A DNA stretch of 64,000 nt from Pseudogymnoascus verrucosus. Taxonomy: Eukaryota. A model generated the notes under the pieces. That model was not told the DNA's origin and did not search any database. It saw nothing but the letters and a program-made list of their open reading frames with translations. Below, piece by piece: positions 48,952-64,000 of the stretch. Within the stretch, counting starts at the first letter, position 1. Each line of letters opens with the position of its first letter. Both the position numbers and the translations under genes were made by a program. The stretch is taken from assembly GCA_001662655.1 (NCBI GenBank), contig KV460229.1; one strand, written 5' to 3'.

Positions 48952-50440
48952 TCAACTTGGTCTTATCATTAAATAGCTATTGACACTTTGGAGTGTCGAG
49001 CGACTTGGGTTTGAATCTGGTATGGCTGTCATGATCCATCCTAGGCGCCGCCGAATAAAGGCTTTGTCTATTCCTGAACCTTCTTGCCCCAGTTCAAACA
49101 AATCACCGTTCTCATCATACAGAATGCAAAGTATAGCAAGTGCTACTCCAATGGAGAGATCTTTGCCGTCGGGACATGCCACCACAATCCTGGGAGACTT
49201 GGTTTCAGCAGAGGCCGTCGAGAGTGACCTCTTGACGAAGTCAATCATATGAGGTAAAGCAGATCGTAGGTTGCGGCTTCCAATTTTGCCAGAGCCAATT
49301 CCAATCTCTAGCCTATGTTTATCTTTCTGCCAGCTTGCAGGGGCTGTAATTTCGGAGCTAACTGTGATAATAATATCGCTACTGCTAGCGGATTGAGCTG
49401 CGAGAGATGTCGACGACGTGACATAAAGAGAAGAAGTTGGTGGTAGAAGGGTAGGGCTAGGCTTGCCGGTACTGGTGTTGGAAGAGCTTGATACCAACTC
49501 TGTGATCAAGCTTGGGAGCTCAGATTCCGACGTGGAAAGTAGGAGCTCACTGTTTGGCCAGAACACGGTAGGAGTCAACCCATGGGCCCAGTTCTCAGTA
49601 TCATCCCCAGAGCCTTGAATGTATCCCCCTTCACTGACTTCACCACCGGCAACTCGCCGAGATGCGGTGCAGCATATTACGGGGTGATAATCGCTGAACA
49701 CTTGTTCCTCAACAGGGAGCGCCGACTCTGGTGTTACCCATAACGGTCTTATCGGTTTAGATATGTGCTCTCTGAGCGGTTTCATGTTGATGCCCAGGCT
49801 AGCGAAAGACTCTGTGAAGTCGTCTAATCGTGCAGCTATTTGGGCATTCTCAGAGGTCGAGACAGCTTGTGGGGGCGTGTAGAGGTTGTGATATTCCGGC
49901 TTGTCCGGGAAGAGGGAGCGGTTAATGACGCTACACCATATTGGAATTGTCTTGCTCAGGGCATCGGGCATTCCTGTCGTAACGTTAGCTCGATCTTGAG
50001 TAGACGGAAGGAGCTGACGAACTCTTTCCTCTCCGAGTAGAATCTACAATGATGCATCTACAAAGATTTAGTATTGCATTCAAACCCAAGTATTCCCCAT
50101 GCGCCTACCCATCACCCTTTCCAATCAACTCGAGGAGATGTGTGTTCAACCTCCGGGTACTAAACTTCCAAACGCCTGTATGTCCATCGGTGCTTTTGAA
50201 GTATGCGCTCCCTGATTTGGCCTCTGGGTTAATATACCAGCTTCCGCACCGTTCATTGGCGACTAGAGGGCGGCAGTATGCCCCCGACACGCTTTGAACG
50301 AAAGCGGCATCGACGAGGATCGACTGGAGGCGGTTGTGGATGGAGAGAGTGTGGCGTTTGATATCCCCCAGGGTCTTGGAGAAGTTATGATTCGCTTGTT
50401 CCGAGAAGATGAGGTCAGAAGCGGTAGCTGGTGGCGGCAT
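48952..50440 (-). CDS. RIT1: Initiator tRNA A64 2'-O-ribosylphosphate transferase
   Basis: LVANERCGSWY, AYFKSTDGH, IVDSTRRGK, MPDALSKTIPIW, YIQGSGDDTENWA, GKDLSIG, NPSRSTLQSVN; two introns. Confidence 0.93.
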
Positions 50441-50933
50441 TCTCCTCTTGTATCGTGGGAATTTGTGGTAATGGGAGTTTAAGGTGGGATCTCTCGGGGA
50501 TGGCTCGCAGTTGAAGTGACGGCATGAAGCCGCTGGAGAAGGTGCCAAGGGAATATTTATCGGACCGAACTTACACCTAAATTAGCTGTGGTTCACCGTA
50601 CCCTTGGAACTTTCCCCAATTGTTGACTTCGGATTTCTTCGAAAATATTTACAATAAACCAGTGAGCCTTTTACGCCGATTCCATAATTTATTTTCAACG
50701 CCTGATGCACAACGTGGAGCATTTGTCATATTCATAGTGTAAGGTGAGTGGTTTGTGCGGTGGTGAATGGTCCAAAGTGGAGCCTGTCCTCTGAGCACCA
50801 CCAATATTAAAGGGCGACCAGGCCCATCGTCATTTTTATCATTTTCTGGTCATTATAAACTTCTAAAAGGGTTTCGCTCCCAACTTCAGTTATTGCACTC
50901 GTACTATCGACAGTGTGAGCCATACAATCTATT

Positions 50934-51604
50934 ATGTTCAAATTCTCGACTCGTCTGGTCCCTTCAGGCCATCGTATCCACTGGAGTTCTTTGAGAAAGA
51001 TAACCCCTGCAACTACATTCCAGCTCCGGCCAAAATGCACCGAAAGTTCCCCAAAGGCTCCATGCAGCAAAAATGAAGGAAAGACGCTGCCTCCTGCGGT
51101 ATTTTCATCGCAATTTTGGGCGTCGAGGGCAGTATGGAATCGAGCTGGTCTAAATACGCTGCGATGTCTCGTTGGTTGTACTCTCGGGGACTTCTCATCC
51201 ATGTGGTATCTCCAAGCTTTCCATCCGGAACTTGGGACTGGGGCAATCATGGCGATTTCCAGTACGTGTGCCTGCCCATTGACTTGTATTTTCTCAGCTA
51301 ACGTGATTTAGTGGCGAGCGGTGTCACGACTTCTCTACTCCTGGAGACTGTTCTTCTCCGGCTCGGCCGTGATCAACTTGGCTGGATGGTAGCGGCCAAG
51401 ACGGCGGCAGGAATGAGTCTTATATCAATGATATCGATGGAACTGGCTGAGAACCTTGTTGATTACCATTTAACGGGGGGAGTCATTCAGCTCGACTCGC
51501 CGCAGTTCTGGGGAGCTGCCATTGTATCGATAGCAGCTGGGTTCTTGACGCCATTGCCGTACAATTACCACAGACTGCGGAAGTATGGCAAGGCATGTCA
51601 CTGA
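50934..51604 (+). CDS. DUF4396-type small membrane protein
   Basis: NTLRCLVGCTLGDF, intron 51263-51311, GMSLISMISMELAEN, and AGFLTPLPYNY. Confidence 0.75.
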
Positions 51605-51969
51605 GGTGTGATTTGCATAAAGTCGACAATGTTGTATAATAGTTCCATTTATTAGGCGTTTCAAAGGACGGTGTTAAGGACTGTAATAGTAGTTCAGTAA
51701 AATACCACTTATTATATACTACAATCCCTTACGTATCACAGTGATTACAGCAACTATAGTTCAAGTAAACTCAGGGCTACAACAAATAAGGCGGTTACCC
51801 AGGAATTATATTCTATATACATTCTCGTTGGATTTGGCACCTTGAAAAAAGGGTCTGATTGTAAACTGAGACCGTGTAAGAGGATATGCCTTGGCATTAT
51901 CAACCTGTATTTCCAGTAACGCCTGCAAGACCCATATCTTGACCTATTTGTAACACACTTCTATTCATA

Positions 51970-54906
51970 TCACTCCAGCCGCGTCACTACAGTCTTTAGA
52001 ATCTCTACTGTCTTCTTGGACGCATTCTTCGGATCCTTCGCAACGCTCTGCCATATCTCGCCATGCCTCGGCTCGCTAAGAATACACTTTGCCTCGACGT
52101 CTGCACGTTTCTCCTGATTTAATATTAGCGACTGCCTCTGCAGAGAGTTAATTGGCAAACTTACATCCGTTCCATGCTGCATCAGGAACTTATAATACCA
52201 CGCCCAAGTATCTCCCAAGTCCGGGTCCAACGCAATGCCCCTCTCGAACCAATTCTGCGCCTTTTCCAGCTTGCGCTCGCCCCAGAAGATGCGCGCTACG
52301 GTCACGAAGAGTATCGGATCGTCATCAACCTTCTTGATAGCTTCCAAACTGCGGGGCTTGCGCTGGGTTCGAGGCTCCAAGTGCCAAATAGACTCACTCC
52401 ACAGCAGACCACTCTTTGGGACTTCCTGTAGCGCCTTCGCCATGAGAACCTTTGCCTGACTAATATTATTTGCTCGTCTTTCGACGCGAATAGATTCCAC
52501 CCACAGCTCTGGCGATTTGGCAACAGCGAGGCGGGCACGGTCAAGTACAGATCGGGCCTTGACAACCATTCCTGCTTTCTCCTCGAGGCGTGAGTAGAGC
52601 AACCATAGAGCTACCGAACGGGGACAGGCTTTTGTGCCTGTGCTGTAGGCTTCGCGGGCTTGGGGAAGTTTCCCTTCGCCCTCGTAGATCTGTCCCTTCA
52701 TCATCCACAGCTTGTCAGCCGCAGGGAATAATTGCAGGGCTTCGTTAACAAGGTCCAGCGCGGCGTCGACATTGCCGAGCTGGCGCTCGAAAGAAACACT
52801 CTTCATCCAAACACGGTTGGTGGGAGCTTCTTGTCTCGCGACCTTGAGCAGATTCCTCGCCTGGTCCGGTTCGCCATTATCAGCTTCGAGCCTGACAGCA
52901 GAAAGCCAGATGTCTTCGTTGTTCGGGTTCTGGTTGAAGGCTCTGCCGAGTACCATCCTTGCCTCCTGGATCTCCCCAGCCTGCCATTTCTCTTTGGCGA
53001 GCATCATCCACAGAACCTCGCTCTGTGGGCAAGCCTCCACAGCCTTCTCCAACAAATGCGACAAAGTCTCCCTTGTACCGTGATTCTTCTCCAGGTCAGC
53101 AGCAGCAAGCCACAGGGTCTTGCTGTTGACAAATACACGGAGTGCGTAGGCATAGATAGCTCTTGCTGTTTCGTATTTCCCTCTCCCAATACTAGACTTG
53201 GCATCGTCCATCCAGATGTCCTTTCGGTCATCATCCTCGTCGAGGCCCCACCCCAGAATCTCTCTGATGATGTTGCCGCAGGTCAGAATTGCACCTTCGT
53301 CTTCGCACTTCTCGGCTTCGGTGATCCAGTCTTCTCTCTTAAGCATAGCAGACTCCTTGGCAAGGGCCTGGACGGCACGCTTCATGACATTGATCTTGCT
53401 CGGAACGCCACTTGCCACTTCTTGTTGTTCCTGAAGCCTTGCCGCAGCAATCCAAATTTCATGAGATGTTGGGACAGCTTTGCGGGCCTTGTTGAGAACC
53501 TTTTGCGCATTTTCAGCAGTTTCAAGTCTAGCCAGTGCCAGCCATAATTCGACGGACAGTGGGATGATCTCTGTTGCCTTGGCTAACAAGAGCTTGGCAT
53601 CGTTTGGATCTTCCTCCAGATTGACGGCCTCTTTCCATAGCAAAACAGATTGTGGGATGTGATCCAACGCGTGACGTATTACCCTCTTCTTAGCCCTCGG
53701 CTCTGCCTCAAGGTTCATAGCCTCAATCCATAGGGTTATCGAGTGGTCGTTATTCTTGATCGCGTTTGCCGCAATAATCTTCGCATTGTGGTTGTCGTTG
53801 AGTCGGATATTCTCCACCCACACATCTTCGCTCTTGGGACAGTGCTCGCAGCCCCGCGCGATGACATTCCTCGCAGCAACCATCTTGCCCGCAAGTTCTT
53901 CCAGACGCGCCGCCGCAATCCAGCCAGGGGCGTGCTTCGGGTTCGTTCGAATAACAGATTCCAGCAGCACTCGTGCGCGCTTGATGTCGCCCACTTGCGC
54001 ATCGCCTTCGCCGATATGTGATTTTGCCAGACTGGTGAGATAACCCTTAGGGTCAATATTTGTAGCACTTCCTGCCACGGAATCTCCACCATTGCCCGCT
54101 GAAGCCTGGTCCAAACGAACCTGCAGGACCTTATCTCTCGCCGCTCCGATATCCGCAAAGTTCGTCATTGTCCCGTCTCCTTGCTCAGTCGTTGACGCCA
54201 TTCCGTCCTCCATAACCGTCGTTCCCATTTGTCCTGTGGTCCCAGCGGCAGCCAACACACTATCCGGAACGGCATAGAACTTGTTCCTGAGAGCTTGCTT
54301 GCTCCTGCGATTCTTGCCCGTCAGATCGCCCACCTCTGGTAGGTTCGCCCAGTCCTCATCGGTAACGGTACCAAGCGCGCGCTTGAGGTCCGCAAACTGC
54401 TGTTGGATCTTCGGATTATTGCGCTCGTATTCTTCGCGCTCGGCTTTCTCGCGTGCTTCCCTGTAGGCCTGGTCGGTATTCTGTTCATCTTTGATAAACC
54501 ATCTGCTATGCAGGGTTGGGGTGGGGGTGGGAGAAGGGGGGACAAACCTGCGTATCTTCCGCCGCCTATCCATCTTCTCTTCTACATCTTGGTATATCCT
54601 GTCTGCCTCATCGTCCTCCCTGTCATACGTTCCCCCAGCGAATAGTCCGACCTCGTTCTCGGGATCCTGGAAGCGCTCGTCGTCGTCTTCCTCTTCTTTC
54701 TTCTCAGGAACTCCGTATGCTGATGGGGCAGCTGCGCCGAGCTGTGCCGCGCGCTTTGCGAGCGCTTCTTTGATCTGATCCTCACTCGGGCCCTCGCGCG
54801 CCGGCCCAAGATCTGAGCGGGTGGTGAATCCAGTGGCGCCACGACCGAGACCAGCGACGTAGTTCTCGGGGGCCGGTTGATTGAGAAAGTCGCGTCGTCC
54901 AGACAT
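51970..54906 (-). CDS. PRP6: U5 snRNP pre-mRNA splicing factor Prp6 (S. pombe Prp1)
   Basis: YVAGLGRGATGFTTRSDLGPA, KIQQQFADLKR, IDPKGYLT, HAT/TPR repeats, EPRHGEIW. Two in-frame introns at 54461-54547 and 52114-52164. Confidence 0.97.
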   Translation of the reverse strand: MSGRRDFLNQPAPENYVAGLGRGATGFTTRSDLGPAREGPSEDQIKEALAKRAAQLGAAAPSAYGVPEKKEEEDDDERFQDPENEVGLFAGGTYDREDDEADRIYQDVEEKMDRRRKIRRFVPPSPTPTPTLHSRWFIKDEQNTDQAYREAREKAEREEYERNNPKIQQQFADLKRALGTVTDEDWANLPEVGDLTGKNRRSKQALRNKFYAVPDSVLAAAGTTGQMGTTVMEDGMASTTEQGDGTMTNFADIGAARDKVLQVRLDQASAGNGGDSVAGSATNIDPKGYLTSLAKSHIGEGDAQVGDIKRARVLLESVIRTNPKHAPGWIAAARLEELAGKMVAARNVIARGCEHCPKSEDVWVENIRLNDNHNAKIIAANAIKNNDHSITLWIEAMNLEAEPRAKKRVIRHALDHIPQSVLLWKEAVNLEEDPNDAKLLLAKATEIIPLSVELWLALARLETAENAQKVLNKARKAVPTSHEIWIAAARLQEQQEVASGVPSKINVMKRAVQALAKESAMLKREDWITEAEKCEDEGAILTCGNIIREILGWGLDEDDDRKDIWMDDAKSSIGRGKYETARAIYAYALRVFVNSKTLWLAAADLEKNHGTRETLSHLLEKAVEACPQSEVLWMMLAKEKWQAGEIQEARMVLGRAFNQNPNNEDIWLSAVRLEADNGEPDQARNLLKVARQEAPTNRVWMKSVSFERQLGNVDAALDLVNEALQLFPAADKLWMMKGQIYEGEGKLPQAREAYSTGTKACPRSVALWLLYSRLEEKAGMVVKARSVLDRARLAVAKSPELWVESIRVERRANNISQAKVLMAKALQEVPKSGLLWSESIWHLEPRTQRKPRSLEAIKKVDDDPILFVTVARIFWGERKLEKAQNWFERGIALDPDLGDTWAWYYKFLMQHGTDVSLPINSLQRQSLILNQEKRADVEAKCILSEPRHGEIWQSVAKDPKNASKKTVEILKTVVTRLE

Positions 54907-56490
<1,584 letters not shown>

Positions 56491-57151
56491 AGTTACTTTG
56501 ACGTGCGATGTTCAAATGAGGCGTTGGTGGGGTTAGCGGGCGTTAGGAGGCATATTGTATGTGATGCATGCACAAGACATCACTTTATTTAGTAAGGGTA
56601 TATAGAAAAAAAGCCATACGGAATGAAACATTTTTTACAGTTAAAAACGAACGATCAAGTGGGCACTATTTACTCTCAGGGCATTCGCTCTTTGCCCAAC
56701 AGGTCATGGAGATGTTCAGTTGAAGGATCTAAAGGATGCTCTTGAGAATATCATGGATTAATGAGAATACCCTGTTGAGTGTTTTGTCCGAGCTACTTTC
56801 ATGAAGCTTTTGGTTTTCGGTGATAATATTCTGATAATAATTATCTCGGTGTCCCAATTATCATGGATATGAATTTAAATTGATTCGTAATGTTAGGCTA
56901 CATTTAAACTAATGGCTAAAACCAGCATCGGCCATAAGACCACATCTTTTACCATTTAACCACCCTAGAAATCGTGGGGGGTTAAGTTCTCATATTGTGA
57001 GCACAACCTCGTATATTTATTCTCAAAGCTCTAATTGGCTGTTCTCTTCATAAGCGACCCACTGTATACGGACGCGCACGTACCTGATGTTAGAGGCGCC
57101 CCACATGCCTATCTTGCTATTATTAAATAAGCTTAACCAGAACTATCAACG

Positions 57152-59892
57152 ATGTCATCAGTTAAGGACACTGTAGATCTTGGAGAGAGTACGAGCAGTA
57201 AGAGCTGGTAGACACCTCCCAGGTTGACTCGTCCTCTATTAGAAGATGAAGGTACGTTTTGATGTGCTCTCTAGCTATAAAAGCGCCTGTATAGACTAAC
57301 TATCGTAGCTCCTTCTGAAATCATTCCCTTGGAGCAGTCCAGTCCGCACGGAACAGGAATTCTAACTGTTATACTCTTCCAAGCTACTAATCTGAGCCTA
57401 CCACATCTGGGCGAAGGGTCTAGTTCAGTAGGGTTTGCTGATCCAGAACTGCACAAGCAATGGCTGCCTTATGCTGTCTTGGAATATGAAAAGTTCCAGG
57501 TATCCGCCGAGTCCATATGTTGGGGAAGGAAGGGAAGCGTTCATTGGATGGGCAATCCCACCCCAATTAAGTTTGACGTCTCTGCCTCTTCTGAGCTTAT
57601 CGTGCACCTGTTCGTCAGGAACTATGATGTTTCGAAAGAATGCCAAGTCGTACTGCTTGGGTCGATCAAATTGGACCCATTTCTGGAATCCCGGACTCTG
57701 GGTACGGTGGCGGTAGATGTTCAAGATGGGAGCGGAAGAGTGTTACTCGAGGTTTCTTACGTCGCGAAAGAGATACTCCCCTTAGATGACTGGAAAATGT
57801 GGCGAGTCTCCAAAGAAGTTAATACTGGCGATCTTGTCTATGTCAAAAAAGAAGACTCGGGTCGAAGCTACGCCATGAAGACGATCCCCATAGACCAAAA
57901 CGTTTCTGGGTTAGACCTGACATACAGCCTTTACTCCCGGATTGAACATCCCTTCATCGCATCGCTCAAATTTGCGTTCAAATCGTCTAAGGGGCTGAGC
58001 CTTCTTTCAGGGCTGGCTGATGGCGGACACCTTTTTTCTCACCTCCAAAGGCAGCGACGCTTTGACGTTGACGTTGCGAGACTTTATGCTGCTGAGCTAG
58101 TCTGTGTGCTGGAATATCTGCACGGCAAAGGTATTATTCTCGCATCTCTGAGGCCGGAGAATATCCTTCTAGACTCATATGGCCATGTCAGTCTATGCAG
58201 TCCCGGCCTCTTCGGGCTCGAGCTGAAGGACAGCGATCACATCATGCCCGGCACACCTGAGTATCCAGCCCCTGAGGTCGTTCTCGGCCAAGAAACCTCC
58301 CGGGAAGTGGATTGGTGGAGCTTGGGGATTATTCTCTATGAGATGTTGACCGGACTACCCCCTTTCTACCACGCAGAGGCCGATGAGCGAGAACGTAGAA
58401 TTATCGGTGAACCTCTACCACAGCTCCCTAACAGCCTTTCACCAACTGCCAGGGACATTCTAGTTGGGCTTCTCCACAAGGACCCTAAAAAGCGCCTGGG
58501 GGCAAACGGGTCTTCAGAGGTAAAAGCTCACGCGTTCTTCCACGATGTAGATTGGCATGAGCTACTTGAGCGGACATATATGACCCCCTTTAAACCCATC
58601 AATTCCACGCCAGTTTTCAGAGTCGAACCCGACAAACGCAACCCCCCCGCAGTGCGACGACAATCCAAAGGAATTATATACGAGAAAATGGAAATCTTCA
58701 GTTACACACGCTGGAATCCTATCGATAAGGTTAGGGATGGAAATGAAGATACTGCCTCGGAGAAGAGTTCTTCTAAATCTGAAGATGATGGGTGGGAGTT
58801 GGTGTGGGAGCCAATAACCCAAGAGTTCCATTTTAGGAATCGTTTCACTAACGAGAAACGCCCGGCAAGTCTCAAAGCTCCTGGGCCGGTGGTTGAGGCA
58901 CAGAAGCCTTTGGAATCTTCACCTACGGCTGGACGTAATTTCACCACAGCCCAAGATAGTGTTGAACTAGTTTCGCACAATCTTCCCAGTCAAGTTCAGA
59001 AGAAGGACGCACTAGCGGCTGCGTTGAAAGCTGGATACAGTAACCATACGATCTCACAAATCCTTGAATATGAAATAGACTTGAATACCTGGATTCTTTA
59101 CTACGACGAAAGGAGCGATGGAGACTTTGTGCCATTTTTACTAGACAACATTCCAACCACTCCGCTGGAATGGGCCGTGGGACACGATAACCTCGGTCTC
59201 GTCAACCTTTTCCTAGAAAAAGGAGCCGACGCGAATTATACTTGCTACAAGACACAGGGAACTACAAGACACAGGGACCTGCCCTCATAAAGGCAGTGAG
59301 GCGAAGGAACAAGAAACTTGTGGAAATTTTAGCCCAGAAAACAAACCGAGTCTCAATGACCAGATCCCTGTGTCTAGCTGTGGATCAGCAGGACACAGCA
59401 ATCGTCAATATCCTACTTGCGAGCGGCGTTAGCTGTGACTTCGAGGAATCAGATCGGCCTATTCCCCCCGATCCGTATTTTCACCAATGTACTTTCGGAA
59501 TCCCGCCACCACTCCAAGAGGGAGACTTCATAGCCCCTCTTGTTCGAGCAGCCAGGGCTGGTAATGCAGATATGGTCAGGCTTCTTCTTGCAAACGGTGC
59601 GGATCCCAATATTGGTTACCACGTATACCATAACCAGGAATACGATGGCCTTAACTTGGTAATACCAATTCACTTTCACTGCGGATGGGTCGTGCAGGTG
59701 GCAATGGAGTTACGGCATTTGGAGATTGTTCAATTGCTTCTCGACAGCGGCGCAGATGTTGATCTCCCACAGCCAGTCTGGCCGGTAAGGTCCCACACAT
59801 GTCCGCTGGTGCCGAGGAGCGTGTATCTCATGGTGACAGCTGGACTAGAGGCAGCAGTTGCGGCGGGAAAAGGCAGCGGAGTGGCTATTTAG
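57152..59892 (+). pseudogene. AGC (Ypk1/Gad8-like) pseudokinase with C2-like, WW-like and ankyrin regions, disrupted
   Basis: Kinase-fold motifs YAMK, HPFIASL, RPENILLD, GTPEYPAPE, DWWSLG. Ankyrin motifs TPLEWAV and PLVRAAR. In-frame TAG at 57209-57211 in exon 1 (intron 57252-57308) and a 17-nt duplication frameshift at 59245-59277. Confidence 0.8.
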
Positions 59893-60606
59893 GGGTTAGC
59901 ATCGTGTAAGAGGGATTATATGAGTATATTACGAAAACACAGCTCCCTACCGGATTAACATGTTTATTTAATGGTTATCTTCCCGAACCTTAGAACTACA
60001 GGTAGTTATAGTCCCTCACTTATCTATCCGCACTCTCCCTCCGTCCTTTTCAACACACACTTTGATAAATGTCTGCCGCTGTCGGTGTTCCGGCATTAGT
60101 TTTGCTGTTTACCACCTAAATACTTACTCGGTAAATAGTTCCGCTGAAAGCCGTAACATTAGGGTGATTACATGGGGTTGTATGGCATGACAGGGGTCAC
60201 CTGCTTTATATGGGGAGAGGAAGTACGGCAGTTGGGTTGCGCTTTAAACGATACAGTTTGCGTCTATTGCATAGTAAATTCTGAGATATAATTATGCGCA
60301 TGCTGCAGATCAGTATGAGAGTAACAATCTAGCTACCGGTTAAGACGGCATCAATACGAAATACGATGAAGTTCTGTGCCGACAATTGCATACTACTCCT
60401 TACAGCAAGATTTATAAGAGAAGAGTAAGCACGGCATATATTTACTGTATGAAAGTGATGTTTGACTGCGAGCAATCATGAGAAGACAGATTGAAAATAA
60501 CAGCGATATATAAGACTTGACCTGTTTGGTAATATTAACTCTCACTATCAAACCCACCACACAGAATCACCACATATCTCATTATACAAATTTTTATCAG
60601 CCAAAT

Positions 60607-61018
60607 ATGCAATCTACAGTACGATTTCTTCCGTTGTAATATAGAGTCTGATTTATTTCTAACAGCTGTATAGATCTTAAAGCTCGCGGTGTTGGCTGCG
60701 GCCGTACTTGCTTATCCTGGGCCACATGTCGAACAGCGCGATACACGCCAATTCTTTGGATATACCGACTTTGAGTGTGCGGGCGGCACCATAATGACTG
60801 GTCCTGTTACCACTGGAGTTTGTGTTGCAGCACCGGAAGCTATGACATCTGCTCAAATCTTTGGCTCGAACTTCTGGGACGCCCAGGTGAAATTTTACAG
60901 CGATTCGAGCTGTCAAGATGAAATCTCAGCGGTTACAGAGGTCGGCGACAACGAAGCCAGCTTGTGCTTTGATCTAGGGACAAAAGCAAAGAGTGTCAAA
61001 TATGTTAGCTCATTGTAG
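60607..61018 (+). CDS. Small secreted 4-Cys protein
   Basis: Exon MQST (60607-60618), intron 60619-60673, then ILKLAVLAAAVLAYP..EQR. Two internal half-repeats (YTDFECAG...TGVC and YSDSSCQD...SLC). Confidence 0.8.
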
Positions 61019-61634
61019 CCTTGTAGATACACAGTATCTAATTTTCGGGGCTGTTCTTGTCACACCTATCAATAGGAGAATTATAATATTCATATTTCCC
61101 CTCAAATAACCTCGCACATCTGTAAAATGGTAATTAAATAAATATTGTTTGCGTTGACGAGATCCTGTTATAACCTCTGCCACATCGGCAAAGGTAGTAT
61201 TCTAAGCTCGGAAGATGTCCTAATAGAGGAGATGATATGGTGTCTTAATGCTGACAAGGCACACGTGAGAAAACTAGTATAATGACGCTTATTGCACTCG
61301 TCGTATATATCAAAGGACCAACGGCAATAAATTGACGTTGTGCTCAGCGGGCCAGGTATATTTATATCACAAACACCCACGTCTGAGATTGTTGTCACTA
61401 TCTTTAGTCTCGAAATAAGCTTTGATTTGTCTTTAACTTTATCTAGAATTGCATTATAATGAGAGTTATGAGCTGTACTACAACTTCTCGGCAAGTATGG
61501 CCTTAAACAGTTGGCACACCACCATCAATCTGAAATTCAACAGCATAAATCTAGCTTCCTCATTTCAAGGTTTTGTCTGCACTTCAATAGTTAACACGGT
61601 GCTCTTATGGCGTCGTCCAACAGTATACTGACCT

Positions 61635-61856
61635 CTAGCAGTTGCATTGGCAGCAAATGGTCATGCCGCACCAGTTGCAAGGGCAGGCAACGTTGCATCG
61701 AGCCGCAGCTTGGGAGCGTTTGATCAAGTCCATGCTGAGATCCCCAGGATATTGCATCACAGCAGAATCAAGAGCCTTCCTGACAAGTGCATCGGGAGCA
61801 GCGTTTGTAACAGCCATAAGGCTCACGAGGGTGATGAAAACGGAAGTGATCTGCAT
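61635..61856 (-). CDS. Small secreted prepro-peptide with Kex2-type KR site and 8-Cys C-terminal core
   Basis: Signal MQITSVFITLVSLMAVTNA, pro-region, KR, then SQAAARCNVACPCNWCGMTICCQCNC*. Good start context (caacATG) and TATAAATA ~110 nt upstream on the minus strand. Confidence 0.85.
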   Translation of the reverse strand: MQITSVFITLVSLMAVTNAAPDALVRKALDSAVMQYPGDLSMDLIKRSQAAARCNVACPCNWCGMTICCQCNC

Positions 61857-62754
61857 GTTGTCTGAGTTATAGAACTGAACTGAAGGGTTTAGGTTGAGCT
61901 GGTGTATAAAGTGTTGTTTGTTGGTTGCGTTGTAATTCTTAAACAGAGAAGATTAAGGTGATATTTATACTCTATAGTCCAGTGCCGATATCGCCTGTAC
62001 TATCCGTAAGAGCTAACCATGAGTTCGTAAATGTCCTGTAGCCTGAATCAGTCGTATTTAGCCGTACCAAATACGGTATTGCTTTGCTGACGGACACCAT
62101 TGCTTTGAGTCTTTGATATTTAGTAGTATGAGAGGTTTGATTTACAGCTGTGGATATCTAGTAAGAGGGGAGCCTTATCGTAGGTATGTTTTAGCTTTGC
62201 CGCAGTGTATGCATGCACAAGGTCATGGCAAGGTTATGACCTAACCTACTTGCAGAAATACCATCAGGCTAAATATTTACAGTTTTATCCATACTAGTGC
62301 TGACTTTTATGCATAAGAATATCATTTACGAGGGGTGTCAAAAGCCAAGTAGGTGACCATCTGGATACATTTTACGTATATTGAATCCTTCTTCATCCCC
62401 AATCCTTTGGCGGATGCAGCTTCCGCTAGTAAAATTGCATGAACTGAGACATTCTCCGCTATAAATACTCTGACGGATAAGTATTCCGTAGCAAGTATGG
62501 TTTGTGGGGTATGGAACTGGCGGGGTACAGGAGCACGGAGGTGATTAGGGGGTTCCGCGTGTCCGAATTCGTAGGCTGAATCTGATTCACACAAAAGATC
62601 AATGAGAGAATTAGCGAATAGTAAGGATATGTGAATGTCCTTTAATAGTACGTACTTACGGGTTATAGCCTTGGACTTGTTCCGTCAGTTTACCACGGCA
62701 GTCAAGGGACCATTGTCAGCAGCAGCAGTAGCGGCTGAACCAATATGCAGTTAT

Positions 62755-63699
62755 TCACATTTCTTCATCTGGATCGTACATATATCTATTGGCAGTTGCA
62801 GTATCCCACATTACACGCCAATCCGCGCATTGATGTAACGTTCCCCAGCCATTGAATCCAAACTCATTAGGCACCACTGATGACTCGAGTGCCATATCCC
62901 CAGCACACATAATTGCCTTTTGTTCCAGAGAGTTAGCTACCGAATCAGTTACGGTAAGGTTCGAATACCATACCTGTCGCAAATAGTCAAAACAATGGTC
63001 GAGATGCGATTCAGGACGAAAAACGCGCCTCCTGGTTATTGGTTTGTCGGTTTCTGCGTTAAATTTTCCGGTCATCGAGCCGAAGTGCAACCTAATCGAT
63101 GCCTGTAGAATAAAGTCAGATACTTCGTAGCAGTGTAAAACTAGCAGAGCTTACGAGACAATGTAGTTGATGATACATAGACATGGAATACACTTCGGCC
63201 TTCGTGGAGGTGGAGTTTTTATGATGATCGGGGTAACTTGGCGGCAAATTGAATCTTTCGGGCTCCGTTATTGTAACCATGCCGCTACCAGCTGGTGCAT
63301 GAATTAGCCATATATAAAGGGCAAAAGTAGGTGGTAAACGGACTTGGAAATAAAGACTGCCAAGATGAATTCCCTTGATCGGTGTTTGTAAAATGGAAGC
63401 TCGGATCTGGCTGGAAAGTTACACCTCTCCGGGGTACTTCGAAGTCAGCGTCAGATAAACCCAACTAAAGTTAGAGCAGCTTACTTACCAAGGAGGAAGG
63501 GAGATCCTTTAGGTTCTTGGTCTGCTTGTTTAGTATATTGTAACCATGCCCAGGTGCTGAAACTTCCCACCCAGACGAAGAGCATTAGAAAAAACAAGAT
63601 CTTATAGTGGTTTAAACGACGTATCAAAGGAGTGCGGTCGGCGGGGTCATTTTCCGAGTCCTTATCGGATGTCTCATTCGCAAGGAGGTTGTAACTCAT
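62755..63699 (-). CDS. ustYa: UstYa / DUF3328 family oxidase (5 exons)
   Basis: N-terminal TM anchor, W..L.P.G.G, both HxxHC motifs (MYHQLHCL and HLDHCFDYLRQ), AIMCAGD..LE and GWGTLHQC.DW. Confidence 0.92.
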
Positions 63700-64000
63700 G
63701 GTGTAAAGCAATCCCACAACTGCTGCAAATGATATGTTTTTGCTTCATGTCATGGAGTTGTAGCCATTCTTTTTTATTTTACAATCCAAATTCTAAGAAG
63801 GACGGCGGAAAACCGGAGTAAACAAAACATCTGTAGATGGATAAACTAAACTGCCACAACTTAGATAAGCCTTTTGCATAATACCTTAATCTAAAATGGA
63901 GGATTTTGTATGCAGCTGCTAGGCTTTTGTTTTGGTTCGTACGGGTAAATTGTTTCACTAAAACTCGCAGCGTTCGGCCCGTACCACCCGCTAATGATAG

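Follow-up and report, generated by a model that had tools for sequence, protein, structure and literature searches.

Near one end of a 64,000-nucleotide stretch of the Pseudogymnoascus verrucosus genome (NCBI GenBank assembly GCA_001662655.1, contig KV460229.1; this whole stretch is hereafter called the window), a gene for a UstYa/DUF3328 oxidase and a gene for a small cysteine-rich secretory precursor lie together on the minus strand, between positions 63,699 and 61,635. We consider it probable, on balance, that they form a two-gene module for a peptide synthesized ribosomally and modified post-translationally (RiPP), in which a single-core, disulfide-laddered peptide would be the substrate of oxidative modification beyond its disulfides. 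Protein, metagenome and tblastx comparisons indicate that two fungal classes have kept the pair together, with no synteny around it and despite one or more inversions of one gene relative to the other, and RNA contigs show that both genes are transcribed and spliced. A reading of the DNA letters alone (the sequence-only reading) had proposed a RiPP pair of a class other than the canonical dikaritins, an interpretation that linkage in other fungi supports.

Structure and transcription of the two genes

The UstYa/DUF3328 gene (63699-62755, minus strand) was modeled here as five exons (63699-63489, 63436-63344, 63291-63155, 63102-62974 and 62916-62755) encoding 243 amino acids, separated by four introns of 52, 52, 52 and 57 nt, each bounded by GT..AG. 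The open reading frame (ORF) of exons 4 and 5 matched the Pfam family UstYa (PF11807) with 33.1 bits (cut-off 25, E = 6.5e-08); that of exon 3 alone scored 21.7 bits, below the cut-off of 25. Two HxxHC motifs are present on the minus strand: HQLHC at residues 142-146 (63158..63172), invariant in the UstYa alignment, and HLDHC at residues 180-184 (62992..63006), found in all alignment rows that cover the region. The model thereby bears out the earlier description of an intact DUF3328 gene with both motifs.

Hydrophobicity predicts a single membrane helix at residues 34-52 (63544..63600, minus strand), the most hydrophobic 19-residue stretch starting at residue 34 with a mean Kyte-Doolittle value of 1.78. 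The membrane helix of CctR spans residues 38-59 (PMC12435403). Taken together, hydrophobicity and the position of the CctR helix would fit one N-terminal membrane helix and a lumenal C-terminal domain in UstYa. The public gene model of the orthologue from Pseudogymnoascus sp. VKM F-4513 (P0017) looks wrong, as it skips the exon matching window 63436-63344, which is present in Pleosporales UstYa orthologues.

The precursor coding sequence (61635..61856, minus strand; TAG stop at 61637-61635) is supported by its ORF, its homologues and its ratio of nonsynonymous to synonymous substitution rates (dN/dS), and specifies 73 amino acids. By inspection, the N-terminus fits a signal peptide of about residues 1-20 (61797..61856, minus strand), with a hydrophobic segment at residues 6-17, the 12-residue stretch of highest hydrophobicity (mean 2.42) beginning at residue 6, and after it small residues and an A-P junction. 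Precursor alignments place a pro-region, or leader, at residues 21-47 (61716..61796, minus strand), ending in a dibasic KR (46-47), and a core peptide of 26 amino acids at residues 48-73 (61638..61715, minus strand). In the window, this core contains eight cysteines, all within its last 20 residues, one Trp and no Tyr. The unmodified 26-mer has a computed monoisotopic mass of 2752.01 Da in the reduced state and 2743.94 Da with four disulfides. The precursor matched no Pfam family above cut-off.

Every detail checked of the precursor as first described (a 73-amino-acid ORF with signal peptide, pro-peptide, KR, eight cysteines in the last 20 residues and one Trp) holds. The same is true of its position, with UstYa on the same strand about 0.9 kb upstream: the unstranded spacer from the UstYa stop to the precursor ATG measures 898 bp (61857..62754). 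It holds the promoter of the precursor gene along with a 5′ untranslated region (UTR) of at least 59 nt, RNA contigs extending to 61915.

Evidence for transcription came from four public runs of four studies, two recorded as metatranscriptomes and two presumed to be RNA, which were mapped to 61400-64000. Contigs of all four runs contained a spliced precursor transcript with the joint 61576/61633, removing a 56-nt GT..AG intron (61577..61632, minus strand) that starts 2 nt past the stop; the remainder of the 3′ UTR lies at 61403..61576 (minus strand). These contigs begin at 61403, 61426 or 61502, run to 61576, are joined to 61633 and continue to 61708-61915; the longest measure 423-487 nt, beginning at 61403 or 61426 and reaching 61904 or 61915. 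For UstYa, a 159-nt contig of run X1 joins 63291 to 63344, showing that intron 2 (63343-63292) is removed as modeled. Run X1 also yielded one related variant contig of the precursor with its joint shifted by 5 nt (61581/61633). Aligning the sequence downstream of the stop codon revealed no clear equivalent of the 3′ UTR intron in the Pleosporales-like loci described below.

Linkage of the pair in other fungi

A metagenome scan with the precursor alignment matched 122 stretches, 12 of which were confirmed as precursor loci (L001-L012). Using the window UstYa as tblastn query, we found a UstYa homologue upstream of the precursor and on the opposite strand in L001-L005 and L007-L009, and the Pyrenophora teres orthologue P0019 as query recovered the first UstYa exon in L006. 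In all nine loci whose upstream flank reaches about 1.4 kb or more (L001-L009), UstYa is linked, the two start codons being 1.4-1.5 kb apart; the flank was too short to assess linkage in L010 (299 nt), L011 (959 nt) and L012, which starts inside the precursor. We call L001-L009 Pleosporales-like because their precursors nearly match that of Alternaria rosae and their UstYa exons share 44-83% identity with P. teres P0019. These loci sort into about four groups, 71-85% identical to one another over shared stretches, with an overall nucleotide identity of 71-100%, and L001 and L008 share 15.6 kb.

A tblastx comparison of window 40000-64000 with the related loci matched the five UstYa exons (38-74% similarity, exon by exon) and the precursor, and nothing else; the 898-bp spacer gave no match to these loci. 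In L001, genes for Lipase_3 and DNA polymerase delta subunit B lie beyond UstYa, and its 62 ORFs over 20 kb contained no Pfam domain other than these two and UstYa. The orientation of the pair also differs, being tandem in the window and in a gene model of Exserohilum turcica, and divergent in L001-L009.

The E. turcica model, SETTUDRAFT_44662 (P0018, 354 amino acids), was the sole database match to the UstYa C-terminal ORF from outside Pseudogymnoascus. It joins an entire UstYa to an entire downstream precursor, which retains a Met and a signal peptide of its own. The fusion is probably a prediction artefact; in either case the two E. turcica genes lie side by side on one strand, like those of the window. 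For Phaeosphaeriaceae sp. PMI808, the records of a UstYa orthologue and of a six-cysteine precursor each give 1,110,220 nt as the longest contig, which lends weak support to linkage. The sequence-only reading had named precursor homologues unlinked to DUF3328 in other genomes as one refutation; the homologues are linked in nine of nine loci and in the E. turcica model.

Chance adjacency was rejected as the main explanation on the metagenome linkage, the tblastx sharing of the pair only and the E. turcica model, the pairing being more than chance because it recurs in another fungal class. We also regard it as quite unlikely that the two genes are neighbors without functional coupling, the precursor being a stand-alone secreted cysteine-rich protein and the adjacency kept by inheritance or by joint transfer of a small segment. 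Such an origin would draw on the large size of the UstYa family (at least 493 proteins at E ≤ 1e-10), on the abundance of small secreted proteins in fungi and on the fact that all Pleosporales-like loci are syntenic relatives. However, the last 24 kb of the window shares nothing else with the related loci, the adjacency outlived one or more relative inversions, both genes show constraint, and the linked UstYa proteins form one clade distinct from their paralogues, all of which argues for a functional tie.

Conservation and predicted fold of the precursor

The window precursor is identical to a recorded protein and belongs to a 90%-identity cluster of eight whose named members are all from Pseudogymnoascus. 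A phmmer search of 1.84 billion representatives returned eight proteins at E ≤ 0.001, six of them real and two false; the latter, P0009 (2495 amino acids) and P0015 (513 amino acids), are repeat proteins and were dropped. Besides the Pseudogymnoascus cluster, the real matches are five homologues that are 44-51% identical; three of these come from the Pleosporales (Setomelanomma holmii, Alternaria rosae and Phaeosphaeriaceae sp. PMI808), and the other two lie on Joint Genome Institute (JGI) contigs. In this search, the named homologues thus appear confined to Pseudogymnoascus and Pleosporales. A word-indexed search returned the precursor's own cluster only, and the ESM Atlas gave a single match of 0.80, at noise level by the tool's statistics.

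The public model P0011 (A. rosae, 132 amino acids) looks wrong, continuing past the precursor stop region into unrelated sequence. At L011:960-962 the precursor start is GTG, and ATG in all others; this could reflect a variant, an error in sequencing or a copy that has been inactivated. No protein of P. destructans was found among the precursor cluster members or in the UstYa orthologue group, and only the paralogue VC83_00726 was listed; the pair may be absent from this species, these searches listing cluster representatives only.

A 17-row precursor alignment shows no variation at M1, A19, P21, Y36 and P37, which precede the core, or at P59, C60, W62, G64, M65, T66 and C69 in the core itself. 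The leader carries the motif Y-P-[AG]-[DE]-x-[ST]-x-[DE]-[LM]-x-K-R, and both a dibasic KR or RR and R47 itself occur in 16 of the 17 sequences. Cysteine content is more variable: all eight positions are filled in 13 rows, seven in P0010 (C63 to Y), six in P0012 from Phaeosphaeriaceae sp. PMI808 (C63 to F, C68 to Y) and four in P0014 and P0016 (C60, C63, C68 and C69 only). The last two, on JGI contigs outside the metagenome loci recovered by the scan, have a shorter C-terminus and retain P-C-x-W-C-G-M-T. Because the cysteine count varies (8, 7, 6, 4) and Y-P together with the P, W, G, M and T positions is invariant, the family is, as judged from this alignment, defined less by its cysteines than by the leader Y-P and a P-C-x-W-x-G-M-T-x-x-C tip.

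The same pattern bears on metal binding. The metal-rich peptide that had been offered as one option is not favored, given four to eight cysteines across homologues and invariant Trp, Gly, Met and Thr. A metallothionein-like peptide was rejected for that variability and invariance, Pro included, and for the presence of a signal peptide and pro-region. A Kex2-processed repeat protein (KEP) was likewise rejected, as the precursor has one KR, one core and no Kex2-separated repeats.

By the Nei-Gojobori method, dN/dS over the whole precursor ORF came to 0.25 when the window was compared with L001; among the Pleosporales-like loci the values were 0.11-0.20, and 0.05-0.19 in the leader. These ratios indicate that leader and core are both under purifying selection.

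The AlphaFold2 model of the precursor, computed with the 17-row alignment, has a mean predicted local distance difference test (pLDDT) score of 67.6, the blocks from residue 31 onward averaging 72-82, and shows a helix at residues 6-17 and a beta-hairpin at 60-63/66-70 in the core. Foldseek found no match of this model in the PDB at E ≤ 0.001, and a sequence comparison with PDB entries gave only a chance match (E = 0.22). Since positions 63 and 68 are lost jointly and 54, 58, 71 and 73 are lost together, the core may form a nested disulfide ladder, suggested by only two loss events, with pairs C60-C69 and C63-C68 and with C54 and C58 bonded to C71 and C73.

So dense a cysteine pattern raises another role for the enzyme. 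UstYa could be a dedicated copper-dependent thiol oxidase or folding catalyst for the four disulfides, performing no C-H modification, and its product a densely knotted secreted antimicrobial or effector. Eight cysteines in 20 residues, losses that fit a nested ladder, the predicted hairpin, the conserved linkage and the dedicated UstYa clade would all suit this role, as would the use of O2 and copper by DUF3328 enzymes in an oxidizing lumen (PMC12435403). We nevertheless hold it to be improbable: the invariant positions are mostly non-cysteine (P, W, G, M, T), homologues with four or six cysteines retain the W-x-G-M-T tip, and the DUF3328 activities described in the portion of that paper available to us are hydroxylation, halogenation, macrocyclization and isomerization, not disulfide formation (PMC12435403).

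Phylogeny of the linked UstYa proteins

A profile built from two orthologues matched at least 493 proteins at E ≤ 1e-10 out of 8000 candidates scored, and 120 of these matches were listed. Orthologues scored 250-779 bits and came from E. turcica, Pseudogymnoascus, P. teres, Clathrospora elynae, Phaeosphaeriaceae sp. PMI808 and Alternaria alternata; P0023, a partial 133-amino-acid E. turcicum model, scored 164 bits and falls in the same tree clade. Among the matches listed, other UstYa proteins reached at most 145 bits, and seven other Pseudogymnoascus UstYa proteins scored 102-110 bits. The orthologues P0017-P0023 carry PF11807 in precomputed annotation. In P. teres, C. elynae, A. alternata and S. 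holmii, a single partner of the pair came to light in these searches.

Phylogenetic reconstruction used 92 rows, namely the window protein and 91 of the 120 listed proteins, P0018 being trimmed to 256 residues; length excluded the remaining 29 (shorter than 195 amino acids unless labeled, or longer than 320). The window UstYa, P0017-P0023 and P0037 formed a nine-row clade with a Shimodaira-Hasegawa-like approximate likelihood ratio test (SH-aLRT) value of 100 and a stem of 0.71, and the other Pseudogymnoascus paralogues fell outside it. Direct evidence of linkage within the clade comes from the window, P0018 and, weakly, P0021 only. This topology indicates that the linked UstYa proteins are a dedicated clade.

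The clade also bears on what we consider the least probable of the readings weighed, and a very improbable one. By analogy with bacterial tyrosinase systems, the peptide might be a copper-handling helper, or 'caddie', supplying copper to UstYa's binuclear site within the secretory lumen, the true substrate being encoded elsewhere. The genes are linked, the peptide contains C-x-C motifs, and DUF3328 proteins are copper enzymes (PMC12435403), all in keeping with such a helper. On the other side, some homologues are down to four cysteines with the non-ligand W, G, M and T invariant, the conserved pro-region with KR at its end agrees with a secreted product that is processed, and hundreds of UstYa genes, Pseudogymnoascus paralogues included, lie outside the clade tied to such a partner.

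Proposed maturation route

The simplest model is that the pro-peptide is modified by UstYa, because the precursor travels through the same compartments as DUF3328 proteins. The 73-amino-acid pre-pro-peptide would enter the endoplasmic reticulum (ER), lose its signal peptide and fold into a small beta-hairpin with up to four nested disulfides. UstYa, as a putative type II membrane protein with a lumenal HxxHC...HxxHC binuclear-copper motif, would oxidatively modify the peptide, most likely at the invariant hairpin tip P-C-x-W-x-G-M-T, with C-H hydroxylation, desaturation or a Trp-centered cross-link as candidate modifications; the conserved Y-P of the leader may help UstYa recognition. Kex2 would cleave after KR in the Golgi, and the 26-amino-acid product would be secreted. 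We infer the peptide's role as enzyme substrate, the pairing of its cysteines, the sequence of steps, and what the modification is and where it falls. A complex prediction of P0021 residues 64-253 with P0012 residues 20-67 scored 0.00 twice, with no controls folded, and is evidence neither way.

Several considerations weigh against UstYa-dependent modification of this peptide. Small disulfide-rich peptides usually fold by the general ER machinery, without a dedicated enzyme. The DUF3328 RiPP substrates described in the sources available to us are short repeated cores, none of them folded and cysteine-rich, and within the family itself one homologue (P0013) carries KT instead of KR. The nine linked loci are non-independent relatives representing one deep lineage, so that deep linkage comes down to three arrangements: the Pseudogymnoascus tandem, the syntenic Pleosporales-like divergent set and one gene model. 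Expression of UstYa is represented by the single 159-nt contig, at a depth of 2.8, and the RNA contigs cannot rank expression or reveal co-regulation. In addition, the UstYa ATG has only 301 bp of the window upstream of it, and the unseen side beyond that end may hold further cluster genes.

A more far-reaching proposal, to which we give somewhat less than an even chance, is that the pair represents the first RiPP class made with UstYa in which a single-core, disulfide-laddered hairpin takes the place of short repeated cores. It would involve a new modification, possibly a Trp-centered cross-link, placed on the invariant Trp/Gly-Met-Thr tip by a lumenal binuclear-copper oxidase under the guidance of the conserved Y-P leader; the module would be a minimal two-gene cluster of Leotiomycetes and Dothideomycetes that may be fused in Exserohilum. 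Fusion of enzyme and precursor is the arrangement of the borosins, and a real fusion in Exserohilum would be remarkable.

Comparison with known peptide systems

In the dikaritins (ustiloxin, phomopsin, asperipin-2a and victorin), as described in the sources available to us, an HxxHC UstYa oxidase likewise adjoins a secreted Kex2-type precursor gene, and maturation takes place in the secretory pathway. Unlike these, the window precursor has a single 26-amino-acid core with eight cysteines, no tandem repeats and no core Tyr, and inspection of the related locus L001 out to 10 kb turned up neither a tyrosinase nor a methyltransferase nor a transporter. Tandem Repeats Finder detected no repeat in the precursor gene and none of coding length in window 50000-64000, L001 or L008. 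For the window, then, the sequence-only reading was correct on both the lack of repeats and the lack of core Tyr, and on these two grounds the pair is not a canonical dikaritin system. Published fungal mining rules, as far as the available sources state them, require repeat-containing precursors and would miss the window pair; in the accessible text of a 2025 lichen study, a 'single core peptide' is raised only as a possibility (PMC12048977).

In the epichloecyclin cluster, the DUF3328 protein GigB is needed to mature the secreted, kexin-processed GigA, a point of likeness; unlike the window precursor, GigA is multi-core and cyclized via a conserved Tyr, and the cluster adds a methyltransferase and its own kexin (PMC10540207). 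None of these features was seen with the window pair.

CctR, like other enzymes of cyclochlorotine biosynthesis a member of the DUF3328 family, has the architecture predicted for UstYa, its N-terminus lying in the cytosol, followed by a single membrane helix and a helical domain in the lumen that bears HxxHC(x)nHxxHC (PMC12435403). It is described as a homodimeric type II membrane protein of the Golgi, endosome and vacuole, in which HxxHC(x)nHxxHC forms a binuclear copper center for the O2-dependent functionalization of C(sp3)-H bonds; more generally, the lumenal domains of DUF3328 proteins act on C(sp3)-H bonds of peptides (PMC12435403). The substrate of CctR is a non-ribosomal cyclic pentapeptide from a non-ribosomal peptide synthetase (NRPS) cluster (PMC12435403), whereas the sole conserved partner of the window UstYa is a ribosomal peptide gene.

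Acalitide, made from the precursor AcaA with the peptidase AcaB, is another single-core fungal RiPP with disulfide bridges, which its authors attribute to the general ER protein disulfide isomerase (PMC10840396). It differs in having two disulfides and head-to-tail lactamization by the peptidase, with no DUF3328 enzyme in the system as presented in the available text (PMC10840396).

Word-indexed and phmmer searches with the window precursor matched no other peptide family. Hepcidin and sillucin are disulfide-ladder hairpin peptides of about 25-30 residues with eight cysteines. The likeness lies in the hairpin predicted here; there was no sequence or fold match to any solved structure. We know of no dedicated oxidase gene for hepcidin- or sillucin-type peptides.

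We found no description of this UstYa-precursor pair in the literature searched, supplements and subscription journals lying outside that search. To our knowledge, most fungal DUF3328/UstYa genes have no known substrate. The pair offers an expressed and evolutionarily conserved example of a non-repeat, cysteine-rich UstYa partner, and as such would widen the search space for fungal RiPPs. With two small genes and one secreted product of 2.7 kDa, it is also a simple system that could reveal how DUF3328 proteins act on a folded peptide, for which antimicrobial, effector and signal roles are possible.

Neighboring genes and other observations

A small ORF at 60517-61018 (plus strand; 109 amino acids, four cysteines) lies just downstream of the precursor and may have an upstream exon. 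It had no Pfam match and no counterpart in the related loci, and because of the latter we place it outside the conserved pair. The neighbors at lower coordinates are housekeeping genes, encoding a splicing factor of the PRP1 type, an ankyrin-repeat protein kinase, an rRNA adenine dimethylase and Rit1. Over window 60001-64000 the GC content is 42.5-43.3%, compared with 45-60% in the remainder of the window.

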